NCBI GenBank assembly: GCA_900234795.1
Contig: LT962688.1
Coordinates: forward strand, 4,290,001-4,322,000
DNA length: 32,000 bases
Source: Methylorubrum extorquens
GTDB taxonomy: Bacteria; Pseudomonadota; Alphaproteobacteria; Rhizobiales; Beijerinckiaceae
Direction: 5' to 3'
Of this stretch, positions 4,165-29,551 are shown piece after piece. Below the pieces are notes generated by a model. The model saw only the letters and a program-made list of their open reading frames with translations. It searched no databases and was not told the DNA's origin. The stretch's first letter is position 1, and the number at the start of each line of letters is the position of its first letter. The translations under genes and the position numbers were made by a program.

Positions 4165-4295
4165 CCCTCTCCCCTCTGCGGGAGAGGGTGGCCCCCGAAG
4201 GGGGTCGGGTGAGGGGAGCGCCGCCTCCGGAAGGGCCTGAGCCGGCCCCTCTCCCGCCTGCTCCGCAGGCACCCTCCCCCGCAGCGGGGGGAGGG
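4165..4295 (-). repeat. 131-bp GC-rich MITE/REP-like element, copy A (inverted relative to copy B at 26278-26408)
   Basis: Hand alignment of this segment against the reverse complement of 26278-26408 gives 5 substitutions plus 1 single-base indel. The ends are hairpins (CCCTCTCC..GGAGAGGG and CCCTCCCC..GGGGAGGG) that are also imperfect inverted repeats of each other. There is a central CCCCC-GAA-GGGGG hairpin. The strand label is arbitrary. Confidence 0.85.
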
Positions 4296-4327
4296 ATTTT
4301 TGTCGTTTCCACTGAAGGCCCCGCCCG

Positions 4328-6418
4328 ATGCTGAGCCTCAGCTTCACGCCCCTCGTCCCCTGGCCGGTGCTCGTCGGATTCGGCGTGCTCGCCGTGATCC
4401 TCGCCGTCGTCGCGGTCCTCGCGCGTGGGCGCACGGCCCTGTTGCGGGCGGTGGCGCTCGGCCTCGTCATCGCGGCGCTCGCCAATCCCTCGCTCGTGCG
4501 CGAGGACCGCGACCCGGTGAAGGACGTGGCGGCCATCGTCGTCGATCGCTCCGGCTCGCAAAGCTTGGGCGATCGCCCGGCCATGACCGACGCGGTGAAA
4601 GCCGAGCTGGAGCGCCGCTTCGGCGCGCTGGCGAATATCGAGCCCCGCTTCATCGAGGTCGGCGACGCCCAGGGCGGGGAGGGCGACGACGGCACCAAGC
4701 TGTTCACGGCGCTGACCCAGGCGCTCGCCGACGTGCCGCCGGAGCGGATCGCCGGCGTGGTGATGCTCACCGACGGCGTGGTGCACGACATCCCCGCCTC
4801 GCTCGAAGCGCTTGGCCTCAAGGCGCCGCTGCACGTTCTCGTCACAGGACGGCCGGACGAGCGCGACCGTCAGATCAAGATGCTGGAGGCGCCCCGCTTC
4901 GGCATCGTCGGCCGGGACGTCACCTTGCGCGGCGAGGTGATGGAGCGCGGCGGCACCGGCACGGCGACTGTCACCGTGCGCCGCGACGGCGAGGAGATCG
5001 ACCGCCAGAGCATCGCCACCGGCGTGCCGTTCTCGCTCACCACGCATATCGAGCATGGCGGCCCGAACGTGGTCGAGATCGAGGTCGAGCCGCTGCCGGG
5101 CGAGCTGACCACGGTCAATAACCGCGCCGTCCTGCCCATCGAAGGAATTCGCGAAAAACTGCGGGTGCTGCTCGTTTCCGGCGAGCCGCATCAGGGCGAG
5201 CGCACCTGGCGCAACCTGCTGAAGTCGGACGCTTCCGTCGATCTCGTCCACTTCACCATTCTCAGGCCGCCGGAGAAGCAGGACGGCACCCCGATCTCCG
5301 AACTCTCGCTGATCGCCTTCCCGACCCGCGAGCTGTTCGTCCAGAAGATCAAGGATTTCGACCTCATCATCTTCGACCGCTACGCCAACCAGAGCGTGCT
5401 GCCGTCCGCCTATTTCGACAACATCGCCCGCTACGTCCGCGAGGGCGGTGCGCTCCTCATCGCCGCCGGGCCGGAATTCGCCGGTCCCGCCAGCCTCGCC
5501 CGCACCCGGCTCGCCTCGATCCTGCCGGGCGATCCCTCGATGAAGGTGGTCGAGCAGCCGTTCAAGGCGACGCTCACCGAGACCGGCCACCGCCACCCCG
5601 TCACCCGGGCGCTGCCGGGCTCGGAGGCGAATCCGCCGGCCTGGGGCGACTGGCTGCGCATCGTCTCGGCCCAGACCCGTCCCGGCGTGCAGCCGATCCT
5701 GTCGGGCGCCAACGGCCTGCCGCTCCTGGCGCTCTCGCGTGAGGAGAAGGGCCGCGTCGCCCTGATGCTGTCCGATCAGGCCTGGCTCTGGGCCCGCGGC
5801 TACCAGCAGGGCGGCCCCTATCTCGATCTGCTGCGGCGCCTCGCCCACTGGCTGATGAAGGAGCCCGCCCTCGAAGAGGAGGCCCTGCGTGCCCAGACCA
5901 CGGGCCGGGGCCGCGAGGTCCGCGTCGAGCGCCAGACCATGGCCGAGGAGGCCGGCCCGGTCACGATCACCGGTCCGACCGGCAAGGAGCGCAGCCTCGA
6001 CCTGTCGAAGGCCGAGACCGGCCTGTTCACCGCGACCTTCGAGGCGGAGGGGCTCGGGCTTCACACCATCCGCTCGGGCAACCTCGTCGCCTTCGTCAGC
6101 GTCGGCCCGGCCAACCCGCGCGAACTCGCCGACGTGTTCAGCGATACCGATCGGCTGAAGGGCGTGGCGGACGGCTCCGGCGGCACGGTGCGTCGGGTGG
6201 CGGCGGCCGGCGGCGGCATCGAGGTGCCCCGCCTCCAGATCACCCGCGGCGGCCGTCTGGGCGGCGCCGACTGGATCGGCTTCCGCCCGAGCGACAGCGC
6301 CACGATACGCGGCGTCGAGGTCTATCCCCTCGGCATCGGCCTGTGGGCGCTCGTGGCCCTCGCCGCCGCCGTGCTGGCGATGTGGCTGGTCGAGGGACGG
6401 CGCGGCCGCGCGGCGTAG
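4328..6418 (+). CDS. Large membrane protein, fourth gene of the MoxR/DUF58/BatA-like module (N-terminal TM helices, vWA-like and amidotransferase-like regions, C-terminal TM)
   Basis: Intact 696-aa ORF with strong GC3 bias. N-terminal TM segments are followed by AAIVVDRSGSQSL (a vWA MIDAS-like start). A central LRVLLVSGEPH..DLIIFDRY..GGALLIAAGPEF block follows, then a C-terminal hydrophobic helix. Confidence 0.75.
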   Translation: MLSLSFTPLVPWPVLVGFGVLAVILAVVAVLARGRTALLRAVALGLVIAALANPSLVREDRDPVKDVAAIVVDRSGSQSLGDRPAMTDAVKAELERRFGALANIEPRFIEVGDAQGGEGDDGTKLFTALTQALADVPPERIAGVVMLTDGVVHDIPASLEALGLKAPLHVLVTGRPDERDRQIKMLEAPRFGIVGRDVTLRGEVMERGGTGTATVTVRRDGEEIDRQSIATGVPFSLTTHIEHGGPNVVEIEVEPLPGELTTVNNRAVLPIEGIREKLRVLLVSGEPHQGERTWRNLLKSDASVDLVHFTILRPPEKQDGTPISELSLIAFPTRELFVQKIKDFDLIIFDRYANQSVLPSAYFDNIARYVREGGALLIAAGPEFAGPASLARTRLASILPGDPSMKVVEQPFKATLTETGHRHPVTRALPGSEANPPAWGDWLRIVSAQTRPGVQPILSGANGLPLLALSREEKGRVALMLSDQAWLWARGYQQGGPYLDLLRRLAHWLMKEPALEEEALRAQTTGRGREVRVERQTMAEEAGPVTITGPTGKERSLDLSKAETGLFTATFEAEGLGLHTIRSGNLVAFVSVGPANPRELADVFSDTDRLKGVADGSGGTVRRVAAAGGGIEVPRLQITRGGRLGGADWIGFRPSDSATIRGVEVYPLGIGLWALVALAAAVLAMWLVEGRRGRAA

Positions 6419-6423
6419 CGGAG

Positions 6424-6461
6424 GTGACGACCGGCAGGGCGGCTGTCGTCACGGCCGTTTT
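6424..6461. terminator. Candidate intrinsic terminator between convergent genes
   Basis: GTGACGAC (6424-6431) pairs with GTCGTCAC (6445-6452) and is followed by GGCCGTTTT. It lies in the 55-bp gap between the stops of 4328..6418 (+) and the AraC gene (-). Confidence 0.35.
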
Positions 6462-6473
6462 AGGAATCGGCGG

Positions 6474-7340
6474 TCACGATCGCTTTTTCCATTCGCCGGG
6501 CGTCATCTGGGTCGCGGTCTTGAAGGCGCGCGTGAAGTGGCTCTGCGAGGCATAGCCGCAGGCCAGCGCCACTTCGGCCAGTCCGGCCGGTTCCCCTCTC
6601 AAGAGCTGTTTTGCCCGCTCGATACGCCGTGCCCCGAGATAGCGATGCGGGGGCATGCCGAAGCTCACCCGAAACATCTTGGCGAAGTGGAACGTGCTGA
6701 GGCGAGCTTCCGCGGCCAATCGATCGAGCGTCAACGGCTCGTCGAGATGCGCTTCGATCAACGCTGCGATCCGTCGCCGCGTCGTGGGCGACAGGCCACC
6801 GCGGACGGACGCCTGCCCCGCGGTCTTGGCGTAGTGCCGGAGGAGGCGGTGAACGAGGAGGTGGCAGGCGGCATCCAGCGCCGGGCCATCGCCTCCCTCC
6901 TTCCAGTCGAGCGGCATCACGCCACCGCGAACGATCATCGCCATCGCGGGATCGTCGGAGAAGGTCAGGTCTTGAACGTTGATCCGGCGCGGATCGACGT
7001 CGAAGGCCGTCAACGCCCGATAGGCGAGCACGTCAGGCTCGATATAAAGGTGGAACATCCGGAGCGATCCGCCGATGTGCCAGCGGCTCTCGTGTCCGGC
7101 GGGCAAGAGGCAGAGCTTGTCCGGCCCGCCGCCCGACAAATGCCGGTCTTCGCGCACGACGCGCTCGCCCCCGTCGAGATAGATGCTGAGCGTGTGGTGA
7201 TCGGGCCGATCGTAACGGGCTTGGTTGTCTCGGTTGCTCCACTCGGCGAGCGAGAGTCCGCGCCCGATCGTTCCCGACCGCATCAGCTGCGCGCCGGTCC
7301 GGGAGAGGGTGCGGGCAACGCTGGGGGACGGGCGTTCCAT
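6474..7340 (-). CDS. AraC-family transcriptional regulator
   Basis: The C-terminal double HTH (..LTLDRLAAEARLSTFHFAKMFRVSFGMPPHRYLGARRIERAKQLL..ACGYASQSHFTRAFKTATQMTPGEWKK) is canonical AraC/XylS. The start is taken at MERPSPS (ATG 7340). The track ORF extends further upstream without support. Confidence 0.85.
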   Translation of the reverse strand: MERPSPSVARTLSRTGAQLMRSGTIGRGLSLAEWSNRDNQARYDRPDHHTLSIYLDGGERVVREDRHLSGGGPDKLCLLPAGHESRWHIGGSLRMFHLYIEPDVLAYRALTAFDVDPRRINVQDLTFSDDPAMAMIVRGGVMPLDWKEGGDGPALDAACHLLVHRLLRHYAKTAGQASVRGGLSPTTRRRIAALIEAHLDEPLTLDRLAAEARLSTFHFAKMFRVSFGMPPHRYLGARRIERAKQLLRGEPAGLAEVALACGYASQSHFTRAFKTATQMTPGEWKKRS

Positions 7341-21176: not shown

Positions 21177-21232
21177 TCGCGGCCGGTCCGGGACACGTTG
21201 TGCGTCCGTCCGCATCAGGCTATGACCGCTCC

Positions 21233-21406
21233 GTGACGGTGCCCCGGCAACGGGGTGAAAAGGGAATGCGGTGAGAGGTTTTCCAGAAGCCTCGATTCCG
21301 CGGCTGCCCCCGCAACTGTAAGCGGCGAGTTCCTGCCACGAGCCACCGGGTGATCCGGGAAGGCGGCAGGCACGATACCAGCCGCGAGCCAGGAGACCTG
21401 CCGTCC
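21233..21406 (+). promoter_or_regulatory. Cobalamin (B12) riboswitch
   Basis: Conserved elements occur in the canonical order: GGTGAAAAGGGAATGCGGTGAGA, GCTGCCCCCGCAACTGTAAGCGG (B12-box region), GCCACCGGG..CCGGGAAGGC, and AGCCAGGAGACCTGCC. A P1-like pairing joins GACGG (21235-21239) with CCGTC (21401-21405). It lies directly upstream of cbtB. Confidence 0.85.
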
Positions 21407-21460
21407 AGCGAAGTTTTGTTCTCGAACGCCGCCGGTGGGGCGGCCGGAGCTCGTGACCCG

Positions 21461-24829: not shown

Positions 24830-27800
24830 ATGCACCTGATCCGCCTCGATACGGTCTCCCTCGACGAGGGCGAGGCGGCGGTCGATCTCGGCCAGAGCCC
24901 GGGCGAGATCGTCTTTCTGTCGTTCACCGATACCGACCTCGCGGCTGTCGCGCGCGCGCATGCGGCCGAGCCCGGCCTGCCGTCGCTGCGGCTCGCCAAG
25001 ATGGCGCAGCTGCGCCACCCGATGTCGGTCGATCTCTACGTCGATGCGGTGATCGCCCGCGCCAAGGTCTGCGTGATCCGCTGCCTCGGCGGGCTCGACT
25101 ATTGGCGCTACGGCATCGAGCGGGCTGCCGCGACGGCACGGGCGCAGGGGGTCAAACTTGCGGTTTTGCCCGGCGACGACCGGCCGGACCCGCGCCTCGA
25201 CGCCTTCTCGACCGTGCCGCCCGAGACCTGCATCCGCCTCGACGCCTATTTTCGCGCGGGCGGCCTGGAGAACCTGAAGAACCTGCTGCGCCGCCTCGCG
25301 GCGGAGGCCGGGGGCGCCTTCGAGCCCGCGCCGCCGAAGGCGTTGCCGCGCGGCTTCGCGTGGTGCCCCGGCTGCGGGCCCGTCGCGCTCGAGACGGCGA
25401 TGCGGGCCGCCGGGCCGGGGCCGCTGGCGCTGCTGCTGGTCTACCGCTCGGCGGTGCTCTCCGGCGAGACGGCGCCGGCCCTGCAGCTGGCCGCCGCGCT
25501 GAGTGAGCGCGGCATCGGCAGCGTCACCCTCGCGGTGTCGAGCCTGAAGGACCCGGAGGCCGTGGCGAGCTTGCGCGCGGCGCTCGCCCTGCGCCGGCCC
25601 GACATCGTGCTCGCTGCCACCGCCTTCTCCGCCCGCGACGATGCCGGCTTCGTGCTCGACGCCGCCGATTGCCCGGTGATCCAGGCCTACACGATCGGCG
25701 CGCCCCGCGACGCCTGGGCCGCCTTGGGCCGCGGCATGAACGCGTCCGACCTCGCCATGCAGGTGGCTTTGCCGGAATTCGACGGACGCCTCTCGGGCTT
25801 CCCGATCTCGTTCAAGGAGGAGGCCGCGGCGGTCGAGGGTTTTTCCGAGCGCCGCGCGGTGCCCGATCCCGCCGGCATCGCCGCTTTGGCCGAGCGCGCC
25901 ACCGCCTGGATCCGCCTGCGTCGAACGCCGCGCGAACAGCGCCGGCTGGCGATGGTGCTCTCCGATTACCCCCGCCCGCGGCGGCCGCGCCGGCTACGCG
26001 GTCGGCCTCGATACACCGGAAAGCGCCCGCGCCATCGCGGCCGACCTCGCCGCATCGGGCTTTGCCGCTGGGGCGCTGCCGGAGGCCGGTGCGCTGATGG
26101 CGTCGCTGACGGAGGGCGAGCCGGGCTTTTCGGTCTCGCTGGCCGATTACGCGGCGTGGTTCGAGGAGCTGCCGGAAGAGCGCCGGACGGAGCTGACCGA
26201 ACGCTGGGGCGCACCGGAGGCCGATCCGCTCTGCCGGGACGGGGCGTTCCGGTTCCGGATGGTGCGAGCCACAGATACCCCTCCCCCCTCTGCGGGGGAG
26301 GGTGCCTGCGGAGCAGGCGGGAGAGGGGCCGGCTCAGGTCTTTCCGGAAGCGGCGCTCCCCTCACCCGACCCCCTTCGGGGGCCACCCTCTCCCGCGGAG
26401 GGGAGAGGGATGAGAGTCTCACCCTCTTCCTCCAGCCCGATCGCGGCCGCGCCGCCGATCGCAAGGCCGGCTACCATGACCCCGACGAGCCGCCGACCCA
26501 CGCCTATCTCGCCTTCTACCTGGGCGTTCGGACAGCGTTCGACGCGCTGATCCATCTCGGCACCCACGGCACCACCGAGTGGCTGCCCGGCAAGGCGGTG
26601 GCGCTCTCAGGCGCGTGCTGGCCGGCGCTGGCCGTCGGGGCGCTGCCGGTGGTCTATCCGTTCATCGTCGACGATCCCGGCGAGGCCGCGCCGCTCAAGC
26701 GTCGGCTCGGCGGGATCGCACTGGGCCACCTCACCCCCACCATCGAGGCGGCCGGGCTCACCCCCCCGAGGCTGCGGCGCTGCGCGAACTGGTCGAGGAA
26801 TACTCCGCCGCGAGCGTGCTCGATCCGCGCCGGGCCGGGCTGATCGCCACGGCGATCCTCGACGAGGCAGCCTCCGCCGGCCTGCTCGCGGGCGCAGGGA
26901 TCGATGGCGACACGCCGATGGCCGACGCGCTGACGGCGCTCGACGCGCATCTGTGCGATCTGGGCGAGACCCCGTTCCGCGACGGCCTGCACGTCTTCGG
27001 CCGTGCACCCGCCGATGCCACCGAGCCGGTTCGCGCCAGTGCCGAGGCCGAGCGCGCCGCGCTCGCCGCTGCGCTCGACGGCCGCTTCGTTGCCCCGGGC
27101 CCCGCCGGCTCGCCCTCGCGCGGGCGCCTGGACGTGATGCCGACCGGCCGCAACCTGACGACCCTCGATCCGCGCGCCCTGCCGACCCGCGCCGCGACGA
27201 TGCTCGGCGCCAAAAAGCGGCGGACGCGGTGGTGCGCCGCTACCTTCAGGACGAGGGCGAGTACCCGGCCCGGATCGTCATGGATCTCTGGGCCTCGCCG
27301 ACGCTCCGCACGGGCGGCGAGGACGTGGCGCATGCGCTGGCCCTGATGGGCGTGCGCCCGGTCTGGGACCATGCCTCGACCCGTGTCACCGGCTTCGAGG
27401 TGCTGCCGCTGGCCCTCCTCGACCGGCCGCGCATCGACGTGACCTGCCGCGTCTCCGGCGCGTTCCGCGACACCTTTCCCGAGACTCTGGCGCTGCTCGA
27501 CCGCGCGGCCCGCGCCGTCGCCGCCCGCGAGGAGGAGGACGAGGAGAACCCGCTCGCCGCCGCCCGCCGCCGGGGCGAGTCCGCCGCCCGCATCTACGGC
27601 GCGGCCCCCGGCCGCTATGGCGCGGGCGCGGCCGAGACCGCGCTCGACGGCGCGTGGGAGGCGCGCACCGATCTCGGCACCGCCTATCTCGCCGCCACCA
27701 CCCACGCCTACGGCGACACGGAAGGCGCGGACGCGGATTTCGCCGCCCGCGTCGCGGCGGCGGACGCCTATGTCCACGCCTTCGACGTCGCCGAGCGCGA

Positions 27801-28267
27801 CCTGCTCGACGGCGATGCGGCCGCCGACGCCATGGGCGGGTTCTTTGCCGCCGCCGCGTCCGAAGGGGAGGGCGCCCGCGCTCTACAGCCTCGACGTCTC
27901 GAACCCGGAGGCGCCGCGCACCCGCACTGCCCGCGAGGACGTCGCCCGGCTGATCCGCGGCCGGCTCGGCCATCCGCGTTGGATCGCGGCGCAGCTCCGC
28001 CACGGCTACCGCGGCGCGCAGGAATTCGCACAAGGCATCGACGCGGTGTTCGTGCTCGCCGCCGCGACTGATGCGGTTTCGAGTCAGGATCTCGACCGGC
28101 TCTACGGCGCCTGGATCGCCGACCCGGAAACCTTCGATGCCCTGAAGGCAGCCAACCCCGAGGCGACCCGCGCCATCCTCGAGCGCTTCGATGAGTTGCG
28201 CGCCCGCGGCCTGTGGCAGAGCCGGCGCAACGCTGCCCCGGCCGATGCTTTGCTGGCCGCCGAATGA
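24830..28267 (+). pseudogene. cobN: Cobaltochelatase subunit CobN; as sequenced it has four frameshifts and a repeat-element insertion through which the frame stays open
   Basis: CobN sequence is recovered from five track ORFs in frames 2, 0, 2, 1, 2. Examples are ..VLSDYP|ARGGRAGYAVGLDTPES.., ..HLGTHGTTEWLPGK.., ..RLDVMPTGRN.., ..IVMDLWASPTLRTGGEDV.. and ..HPRWIAAQLRHGYRGAQEF... The switches are at C5 25969-25973, C7 26761-26767, A5 27212-27216 and G4 27865-27868. The net shift is zero. Confidence 0.9.
26278..26408 (+). repeat. 131-bp GC-rich MITE/REP-like element, copy B, inside the cobN coding sequence
   Basis: It is the reverse complement of 4165-4295 (5 substitutions plus 1 indel by hand alignment). 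It is translated in the cobN frame as ..TPPPSAGEGACGAGGRGAGSGLSGSGAPLTRPPSGATLSRGGERD.., between the conserved FRFRMVRA and LTLFLQPDRG blocks. Confidence 0.85.
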
Positions 28268-29551
28268 GCGCCCGCCGCACCCTGCCCGAGGGCGCCCGCC
28301 GCGGCTGGTGCCCCTCGCTCGCCCGGCCGATGCCGACCGGCGACGGGCTGCTCGCCCGCATCCACCCGCCGCTCGGGCGCCTGACGCCGGCGCAGTTGCG
28401 CGCGGTGGCGGACGGCGCGCGGGCCTACGGCAACGGACATATCGACGTGACCGCCCGCGGCAACCTCCAGATCCGCGGCGTCAGCGAGGCGAGCGCCGCG
28501 CCGCTCGCCTGCGCCCTCGCGGAAGCGGGCCTCGGCGACACTCGCGACGACGGCGGCCCGCAACGCCTGACGCTGACGGCGCCCCCTCGCCGGCCTCGAT
28601 CCCACGGAACAGATCGACGTGCCGGCGCTCGCCCGCGCGGTGGAGGCGGCGGGGCTCGCGGTGCCGGGCCTGCCACCCAAGACGCTGGTGGCGATCGATG
28701 GTGGCGGCGCCCACGGCCTCGGCACGGTCGAGGCCGATTTCTTCCTGTTCGCCGAAGGGCAGGGGCAGGTCGCTTTCGGCCTCGCGACCGAAACCGGTCC
28801 CCTGCGCTGCGGCGTGCTGCCCGAGCGCCAGGCGGCGGGCGCCATCGGCCTTGCGCTCGCGGCCTTCGCCGAGATCGGTGGACGCCGAATGCGCGACCTC
28901 GACGCCCACGGGCGGGCCGTGATCGCGGCGGTGGCCGGCTTCTTCCCGTTCGAGCCGACGCCGCTCGCGCCGGCTCCGGCTCCGGCCGCGCCGGGGCTCG
29001 CCGCCCTGAGCGCGGACAGCGCGGCGCTCCTCGTCCAGGCGCCGTTCGGCCGCTGCACCGCGGATCGGCTGGAACAGGTCGCCGCGCTGGGCGGAGCGCA
29101 GGATGTGCGGCTGAGCGCGGAGCGCGGCCTCGCCCTCGTCGTTCCCGCAAGCCGCTCGGCCGCCCTCCAGGCCGAATTGGCGCGGGCCGGCTTCATCGTG
29201 GCGCCGGACGATCCGCGCCGGGCGGTCGCCGCCTGCCCCGGTGCGCCGGCCTGCCGCTCCGGCACGACCCCGGTGCCCGACCACGCCGCCCGGCTGGCGC
29301 AGGCGCTGGCGCCGCTGGCCGGCCTCACCGCTCATGTCTCGGGCTGCGCCAAGGGCTGCGCCCATCCGGGCCCCGCCGATCTGACCCTGGTGGGCCGCGA
29401 CGGCGCCTACGATGTGGTGCTCGCCGGGCCCCCCTCTGGCGAGCCGGCAACGCGTCTCGCTTTCGAGGTGGCGCTGGACCGGATAAGGAAGGCCGCAGCC
29501 GCCGGGCTTCCGGCGCTGGACCCCGTGTTTCAAGACGACGTGCCAGGATAA
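28264..29551 (+). pseudogene. cobG: Precorrin-3B synthase CobG (oxygen-dependent route); single frameshift as sequenced
   Basis: MSARRTLPEGARRGWCPSLARPMPTGDGLLARI..HIDVTARGNLQIRG.. continues after the C5 run 28582-28586 in the next frame as LAGLDPTEQIDVPALARAVE...AACPGAPACRSG..VSGCAKGCAH (a sulfite/nitrite-reductase-like 4Fe-4S/siroheme fold). The ATG overlaps the cobN stop. Confidence 0.85.

Follow-up and report, generated by a model that had tools for sequence, protein, structure and literature searches.

The window analyzed here is a stretch of 32,000 nt from the genome of Methylorubrum extorquens (contig LT962688.1). It carries cobN, the gene for the large subunit of cobaltochelatase, and the coding sequence of cobN contains a G+C-rich palindromic repeat that is read in frame. 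A second copy of this repeat lies in an intergenic gap elsewhere in the window. The features concerned are:

24830..28267, + strand: cobN (cobaltochelatase large subunit), 1143 aa after removal of six surplus bases
26279..26409, + strand: palindromic repeat core inside cobN, 131 bp, with the ends CCCTCCCCCC...GGGGAGAGGG, open in the cobN frame
26271..26417, + strand: whole inserted block, 147 nt encoding TDT...RDES, replacing 6 ancestral nt (Gly-Thr/Lys); the junction limits are approximate
4165..4295, - strand: second copy of the repeat, in the 190 bp that separate the BatA/DUF4159 gene from the gene after it
21221..21419, + strand: cobalamin riboswitch (RF00174, 117.9 bits), heading the operon cbtB-cbtA-DUF1636-cobW-DUF4349-cobN-cobG-cobH-cobI-cobJ
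28264..29548, + strand: cobG, overlapping the cobN stop; broken in the window at a C5 run at 28582-28586 (C4 in relatives), an artefact

The riboswitch and the gene order place cobN in a regulated B12 operon. After repair, its open reading frame of 1143 aa aligns end to end with M. bullatum CobN at 73% identity, and the CobN matches carry PF02514 (CobN/Mg-chelatase large subunit). A preliminary description of this DNA had reported a 131-bp element in cobN and a copy of about 95% identity in the opposite orientation at 4165-4295. Both are indeed present: when window positions 26279-26409 (+) are aligned with the reverse complement of 4165-4295, 126 of 131 positions agree, and those that do not are 26289, 26339, 26341, 26349, and 26397. 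The pair forms the longest inverted repeat of the window (148 nt at 92%, the runner-up being 42 nt at 74%), and a 39-mer of the element has 2 exact matches in the window vs 0.00 expected in shuffled sequence. The intergenic copy is found at the same location in three related genomes. At its end it is followed by ATTTTTG, which gives a terminator-like site (window 4272-4305, +) directly after the BatA/DUF4159 gene. A terminator role for the cobN copy was also considered and was rejected, as this copy has no T-tail and no terminator-like site.

With codons starting at positions 0 mod 3, cobN reads ..DGAFRFRMVRA-TDTPPPSAGEGACGAGGRGAGSGLSGSGAPLTRPPSGATLSRGGERDES-LTLFLQPDRG.. without a stop, so that the earlier statement that the element is stop-free in the local cobN frame holds. 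Predicted tryptic peptides from the insert include GAGSGLSGSGAPLTRPPSGATLSR. The limits of the insertion were derived from anchored motifs by comparing the window with two orthologues that have an empty site, L002 (83–87% identical to the window in cobN), which reads GAFRFRALSLGTLTLFLQPDRG, and L128, which reads GAFRFRAVRAGKVLIALQPDRG. The distance between the anchors TTCCG.TTC and CAGCC.GA.CG.GG is 200 nt in the window vs 59 nt in both L002 and L128. The net gain at the site is therefore 141 nt, or 47 codons. The empty-site orthologues thus bear out the insertion that the preliminary description had proposed, with 47 codons in place of its estimate of about 48. On either side of the 131-bp core stand 8 junction bases (about 26271-26278 and 26410-26417), which are part of neither the repeat consensus nor the empty allele. 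Because core and junction bases together replace 6 ancestral bases, the length gained is a multiple of three. Extra flanking bases had been predicted as one way to reach an in-frame length, and these are present; a duplication was the other, and inspection of the flanks revealed no direct repeat that would indicate a target-site duplication at the cobN copy.

The 21 nt immediately 5' of the cobN element (window 26258-26278) show 57% identity between the window/L129 lineage and L130, L131, L104, and L003. The latter four are identical to each other over this segment, and the divergence is far above that of the rest of the gene.

To define the repeat family, an exact search was made with a 24-mer from the invariant part of the element in a species-representative genome collection, which gave at least 120 matching stretches. 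Among the matches listed, all lie in Methylobacterium, Methylorubrum or Methylobacteriaceae records, and many Methylobacterium and Methylorubrum species have several copies per genome, with 12 places in one 2.8-Mb M. bullatum record. We aligned 113 full copies from these matches to define ends, length and flanks. The copies share sharp ends, 5'-CCCTCCCCCC...GGGG(A/G)GAGGG-3', have a modal length of 125–131 bp with variants of 150–169 bp (the longer variants carry only approximately 25–40 extra bases), and have a mean G+C content of 77%. Their flanks are biased (AA or GA on the 5' side; TT, AA or AT on the 3' side), and no consistent target-site duplication was seen in the flanks of the 113 copies. 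In many family members the repeat is preceded by an A-run (5') and followed by a T-run (3'), the arrangement expected of bidirectional terminators. Three copies stand in tandem at a spacing of approximately 190 bp in Methylobacterium sp. E-045 (L047 4326-4729).

The two ends of the element form an inverted repeat: its first 30 nt and the reverse complement of its last 30 nt agree at 24 of 30 positions, and in the predicted fold these ends pair. The unit folds as a long hairpin with side hairpins, with calculated energies of -102.7 kcal/mol as RNA (z -5.1) and -50.5 kcal/mol as DNA (z -4.3). Over 60 distinct copies, 98% of the cells of the consensus structure are paired, and one pair occurs with four pair types and 21 double changes. 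Among Rfam families, none matches the element; the cobalamin riboswitch alone scored. The repeat behaves like a transposable element of the miniature inverted-repeat type (MITE): the unit is small (125–131 bp, up to about 169 bp), has inverted ends, is present in many copies, and has filled (window, L003, L104, L129-L131) and empty (L002, L128) orthologous sites. It departs from a MITE in the absence of a target-site duplication. We infer that the repeat reached cobN by transposition. As far as we found in the literature searched, this Methylobacterium palindromic repeat family appears to be undescribed.

The site of insertion is a β-hairpin turn, GAFRFRxVRA | LTLFLQPDRG. An AlphaFold model of the repaired CobN protein, built with 78 sequences, reached a mean predicted local distance difference test score (pLDDT) of 84.2 and a predicted template modeling score (pTM) of 0.83, and superposes on M. 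tuberculosis CobN (7c6o) with a template modeling score (TM) of 0.75. The insert is modeled between strand 472-479 (AFRFRMVR) and strand 530-534 (LTLFL). For successive ten-residue blocks from 481 to 530, the pLDDT is 47, 28, 28, 48, and 59, and over residues 484 to 525 approximately it lies at 28–48. As the insert is flanked by strands and has low pLDDT, the 47-residue Gly/Ser/Pro/Ala-rich segment is predicted to be a disordered loop in the hairpin turn. The preliminary description had suggested such modeling as a check, and it had noted that the blocks on either side are nearly contiguous in CobN proteins. The latter agrees with the solved CobN structures 9uk9 and 7c6o, which have no insert and approximately 10 residues where the window has 57.

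In the window sequence as deposited, cobN is divided into five frame segments (24830-25972, 25971-26777, 26765-27214, 27214-27867, and 27866-28255), which were located with a frame plot of the G+C content at third codon positions (GC3) and with tblastn using the intact M. bullatum CobN. The four frameshifts between them, overlooked in the preliminary description, all lie outside the repeat. They are listed here with the breaks in other genes of the window:

25969..25973, + strand: C5 run, C4 in relatives; +1 frameshift in cobN, artefact of the window sequence
26761..26767, + strand: C7 run, C5 in relatives; +2 frameshift in cobN, artefact
27212..27216, + strand: A5 run, A3 in relatives; +2 frameshift in cobN, artefact
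27865..27868, + strand: G4 run, G3 in relatives; +1 frameshift in cobN, artefact
1325, 2336, 2935: breaks in the BatA/DUF4159 gene, short-repeat expansion
9475, at (GA)n, and 10150: breaks in the PAS histidine kinase gene, short-repeat expansion
14932: break in the alpha/beta hydrolase gene, short-repeat expansion

Twelve expansions are specific to the window (1325, 2336, 2935, 9475, 10150, 14932, 15337, 25969, 26761, 27212, 27865, and 28582). All are +1 or +2 insertions in homopolymers or (GA)n, and there is no deletion among them. Near-identical genomes lack them: L132 is identical to the window over 5.7 kb apart from short-repeat expansions, L129 is 99.86% identical over 8.45 kb (5 substitutions, 5 gaps), and L135 is 99.86% identical over 16.4 kb (12 substitutions, 8 gaps). 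Window expansions account for all gaps against L129 and L132 and for 7 of the 8 against L135; the remaining one (4192) stems from L135 itself. The intact lengths in near-identical genomes are 1143 aa for CobN (three genomes), 428 aa for CobG, 1103 aa for the kinase, and 294 aa for the hydrolase. Since the twelve expansions break five genes within 32 kb that is otherwise identical to intact genomes, the frameshifts in the window are sequence errors, and the pattern of insertions only points to a systematic error of sequencing or assembly. Within the element there is no such difference from L129 or L132, and the length of 131 bp for the cobN copy is therefore reliable.

Several contigs begin or end in or beside the cobN element (L004 at 1-60; L132, L133, and L134 at position 1; L126 and L127 at their ends). 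Short-read contigs breaking at the element account for the many Methylobacterium database entries named "cobaltochelatase subunit CobN, partial". The matches of the protein search were only fragments of at most 660 aa, and full-length CobN orthologues were taken from DNA loci. In near-identical genomes, past the right end of the window, the cob operon is followed by phage terminase, portal, protease, and capsid genes (L129 9004-12633).

The same in-frame insertion is present in L129, L130, L131, strain Leaf123 (L104) and strain DSM 13060 (L003, P0121), at 91–99.9% identity in cobN, and among the insert-carrying relatives CobN is called intact at 1143 aa. Over 1427 nt upstream of the insert, the comparison of L129 with L104 gives 33 differences at 952 first and second codon positions (3.5%) and 85 at 475 third positions (17.9%). 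As first and second positions differ far less than third positions, selection on the CobN protein has continued since the insertion. By this sequence comparison, cobN has remained intact, and purifying selection has acted on it, in every sequenced relative with the insert; it is not decaying. M. extorquens relies on B12-dependent mutases in its ethylmalonyl-CoA pathway and does not require added B12 for growth, which fits with an active CobN. The insert is presumably translated and harmless, with CobN retaining its activity.

The element is permissive for such read-through. Its high G+C content leaves most copies open: in any one of the six frames, 65–94% of 77 canonical copies contain no stop. 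Intragenic copies will therefore mostly remain open, the one further requirement being a length divisible by three. Seven of the 113 copies (approximately 6%) are intragenic and in frame; their hosts are four bona fide genes, in which GC3 is of coding type to either side of the copy, and cobN accounts for those in three genomes. The preliminary description had suggested a census; among the copies aligned here, the further intragenic ones stand at linkers between domains:

L026, about 6400-6530 (Methylobacterium sp. Leaf91): urea-carboxylase-like protein (1212 aa), in-frame copy between the CT_A_B and CT_C_D domains
L066, about 4370-4500 (Methylobacterium sp. Leaf91): ATP-dependent DNA ligase, in-frame copy upstream of the ligase domain
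L092, about 5725-5870 (Leaf91), and L065, about 2270-2410 (BTF04): Lhr-type helicase, in-frame copies between DEAD and Helicase_C

In the helicase orthologues of Leaf91 and BTF04, the element sits at the same linker in opposite orientations, in frame in both. The intragenic copies are read as protein in three or more different frames and orientations, and hence there is no "designed" peptide. In CobN, the amino acid changes in the insert look unconstrained, and with other copies using other frames and orientations, the insert peptide itself is probably a passenger.

The CobN turn also carries other sequences. The intact 1160-aa CobN of M. bullatum carries a different repeat in frame at this position:

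L001, 5838-6008 (M. bullatum cobN): second, unrelated palindromic repeat at the CobN turn, translating as ...PHPEVPERSASLEGG...LEASFEAA...PQDE...

Copies of this second repeat occur in at least 10 other loci (L014 about 1076-1250; L106, L092, L103, L123, L051, L120, L072, L105, and L046). At the same turn, strain J-077 has a variant with the same ends and a different interior, L126 (a metagenomic relative) has nested elements, L125 has a 42-nt remnant, and L004 has yet another right junction. When the CobN-site junctions of nine loci were compared, several proved to share a short ATGAG motif at the right one. This recurrence hints at one old insertion whose interior has turned over; the empty site of ancestral length in L002 argues for independent events or a precise loss.

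The element itself evolves slowly. The cobN copy is 94–99% identical between lineages whose cobN third positions are 78–92% identical, and the intergenic copy differs by 1.5–2.3% where third positions of the neighboring gene differ by 5–7%. The changes within the insert are few and mostly nonsynonymous. Although the counts are small, this suggests that the hairpin is constrained or that the copies undergo gene conversion, rather than that selection acts on the peptide.

Taken together, we consider it very likely that a non-autonomous repeat inserted into the CobN hairpin turn in an ancestor of the M. extorquens group, that the frame was kept, and that the resulting loop was tolerated. In the sequence of events that we propose, a MITE-like repeat of 125–131 bp and approximately 77% G+C would have entered the turn; the frame would have been kept since the element is nearly stop-free in all frames and the net gain happened by chance to be 141 nt; and CobN would have gained a predicted disordered segment of 47 Gly/Ser/Pro/Ala-rich residues that the enzyme tolerates. 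Three points weigh against this reading. With no target-site duplication, the case for transposition comes solely from the dispersed copies and the contrast of filled with empty sites. Conservation of the element exceeds that of synonymous sites, which is unexpected of a passive passenger unless gene conversion or hairpin constraint is at work. Finally, both the presence of the insert in mature CobN and the activity of the enzyme are deduced from sequence.

The preliminary description had left two alternatives, a repeat tolerated as a loop insertion or a first hit in the decay of cobN. The former agrees with the empty site, the intact 1143-aa relatives, the hairpin-turn model and the solved CobN structures lacking the segment, and the latter is not borne out, given the purifying selection and the artefactual nature of the frameshifts. 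It would be very improbable for cobN to be a decaying pseudogene, with the repeat as the first or one of several inactivating hits. The five frame segments with their four frameshifts, and the broken cobG beside them, give that impression; all these breaks, however, are +1/+2 expansions of homopolymers or (GA)n that affect at least five genes of the window, the genomes that are identical or 99.86% identical to it lack them and encode a 1143-aa CobN and a 428-aa CobG, and first and second codon positions of cobN evolve approximately five times slower than third positions. The frameshifts as real pseudogene lesions were rejected on the same grounds, breaks of this type occurring in four other genes and none in the near-identical genomes. 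Still more remote, and close to negligible, is the proposal of a native CobN loop specific to the lineage, from which the intergenic "copy" would derive or which it would resemble by chance. Several Methylobacterium CobN proteins do have extra residues at this position, but these stem from different repeats. Moreover, the segment shows 96% identity to the intergenic sequence and 75–97% to over 100 dispersed copies that share its sharp ends, and in the closer relative L002 the site is empty and its length is exactly the ancestral one.

The conservation of the element bears on two further readings, both of which allow the insertion and ask why the repeat stays. The element may be kept in cobN for a role as nucleic acid, such as a hairpin for mRNA processing or stability, ribosome pausing between domains, or a DNA structure to which a host factor binds. 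Its excess of identity over cobN third positions, a trend that the intergenic copy follows, speaks for this, as do the very stable fold with its nearly complete pairing and double changes, and the unconstrained look of the amino acid changes. The same pattern would however result if hundreds of copies underwent gene conversion, or if the ends of a mobile element had to pair; the counts are small (1–8 differences per comparison), the cobN copy without a T-tail is not terminator-like, and L002 and many other CobN proteins do without any insert, so that we judge such a role quite unlikely. Doubtful as well is a broader reading, based on the at least five occupancy states of the CobN hairpin and on both orientations at the Lhr linker, in which repeats recurrently colonize and turn over at a few enzyme loops while selection holds the hairpin, slowing its evolution several-fold relative to synonymous sites. 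If true, it would imply a role in the coding region, in mRNA processing or stability or in translational pausing between domains.

A repeat tolerated in the hairpin turn has several consequences. The host gene encodes an enzyme central to aerobic B12 synthesis, and the methylotrophs concerned are a model group dependent on B12 enzymes; the insertion marks a permissive CobN loop as a potential site for tagging or engineering. The site offers a natural series (empty, element A, element B, nested elements, 42-nt remnant) that can be used to study the origin, turnover and decay of inserts with the frame preserved. On the practical side, the element breaks short-read assemblies in cobN, and the short-repeat expansion errors of the window mimic pseudogenes and should be flagged as data errors.

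The repeat can be set beside several known classes. The only MITE reported in the M. extorquens genome paper is MiniMdi3 (PMC2680597), which at approximately 400 bp is unrelated to it. Repetitive extragenic palindromic (REP) sequences associated with REP-associated tyrosine transposases (RAYT) are units of 20–40 bp, one end of which bears a GTAG or CGTC tag (PMC3733652). The intergenic copy, which ends in a G+C hairpin followed by ATTTTTG, and the A-run and T-run flanking many members recall REP sequences and bacterial interspersed mosaic elements (BIME), extragenic palindromes that serve as terminators or mRNA stabilizers; in contrast to these, the unit is 125–131 bp, its ends are CCCTCC.../...GAGGG without a GTAG/CGTC tag, and the cobN copy has no T-tail. 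Intragenic, in-frame bacterial MITEs are known in the form of the enterobacterial repetitive intergenic consensus or intergenic repeat unit (ERIC/IRU), pneumococcal BOX, Coxiella QMITE1, and Anabaena MITEs (PMC10969869; PMC5896051; PMC3184786). With MITEs, the Methylobacterium repeat has in common that it is small and non-coding, has terminal inverted repeats, many dispersed copies and filled/empty sites, and occasionally forms translational fusions with host open reading frames; it differs in the lack of a target-site duplication, both at the cobN copy and over the 113 copies.

In-frame palindromic repeats in housekeeping genes are already known, and the classic case is that of the Rickettsia palindromic elements (RPEs) (Ogata et al., 2000, 2002). 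As summarized in PMC10969869, RPEs are palindromic repeats in frame within unrelated housekeeping genes, and their families are described as having a conserved encoded peptide and nearly half of their copies intragenic. The likeness is that both are dispersed palindromic repeats of approximately 100–150 bp that have entered unrelated housekeeping genes in frame time and again, adding a peptide at positions that the protein fold accommodates. The Methylobacterium repeat differs in having no single conserved peptide, with differing frames and both orientations, and in that approximately 6% of its sampled copies are intragenic (7/113, four genes) vs nearly half. It has no sequence relation to RPEs, is approximately 77% G+C and, among the matches listed, is confined to Methylobacteriaceae. 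The reading of "selfish DNA" as protein, for which Rickettsia with its reduced, AT-rich genomes is the best-documented case, extends to large GC-rich genomes of free-living Alphaproteobacteria. The Methylobacterium repeat works like an RPE and is not a member of an RPE family, the resemblance being functional only.

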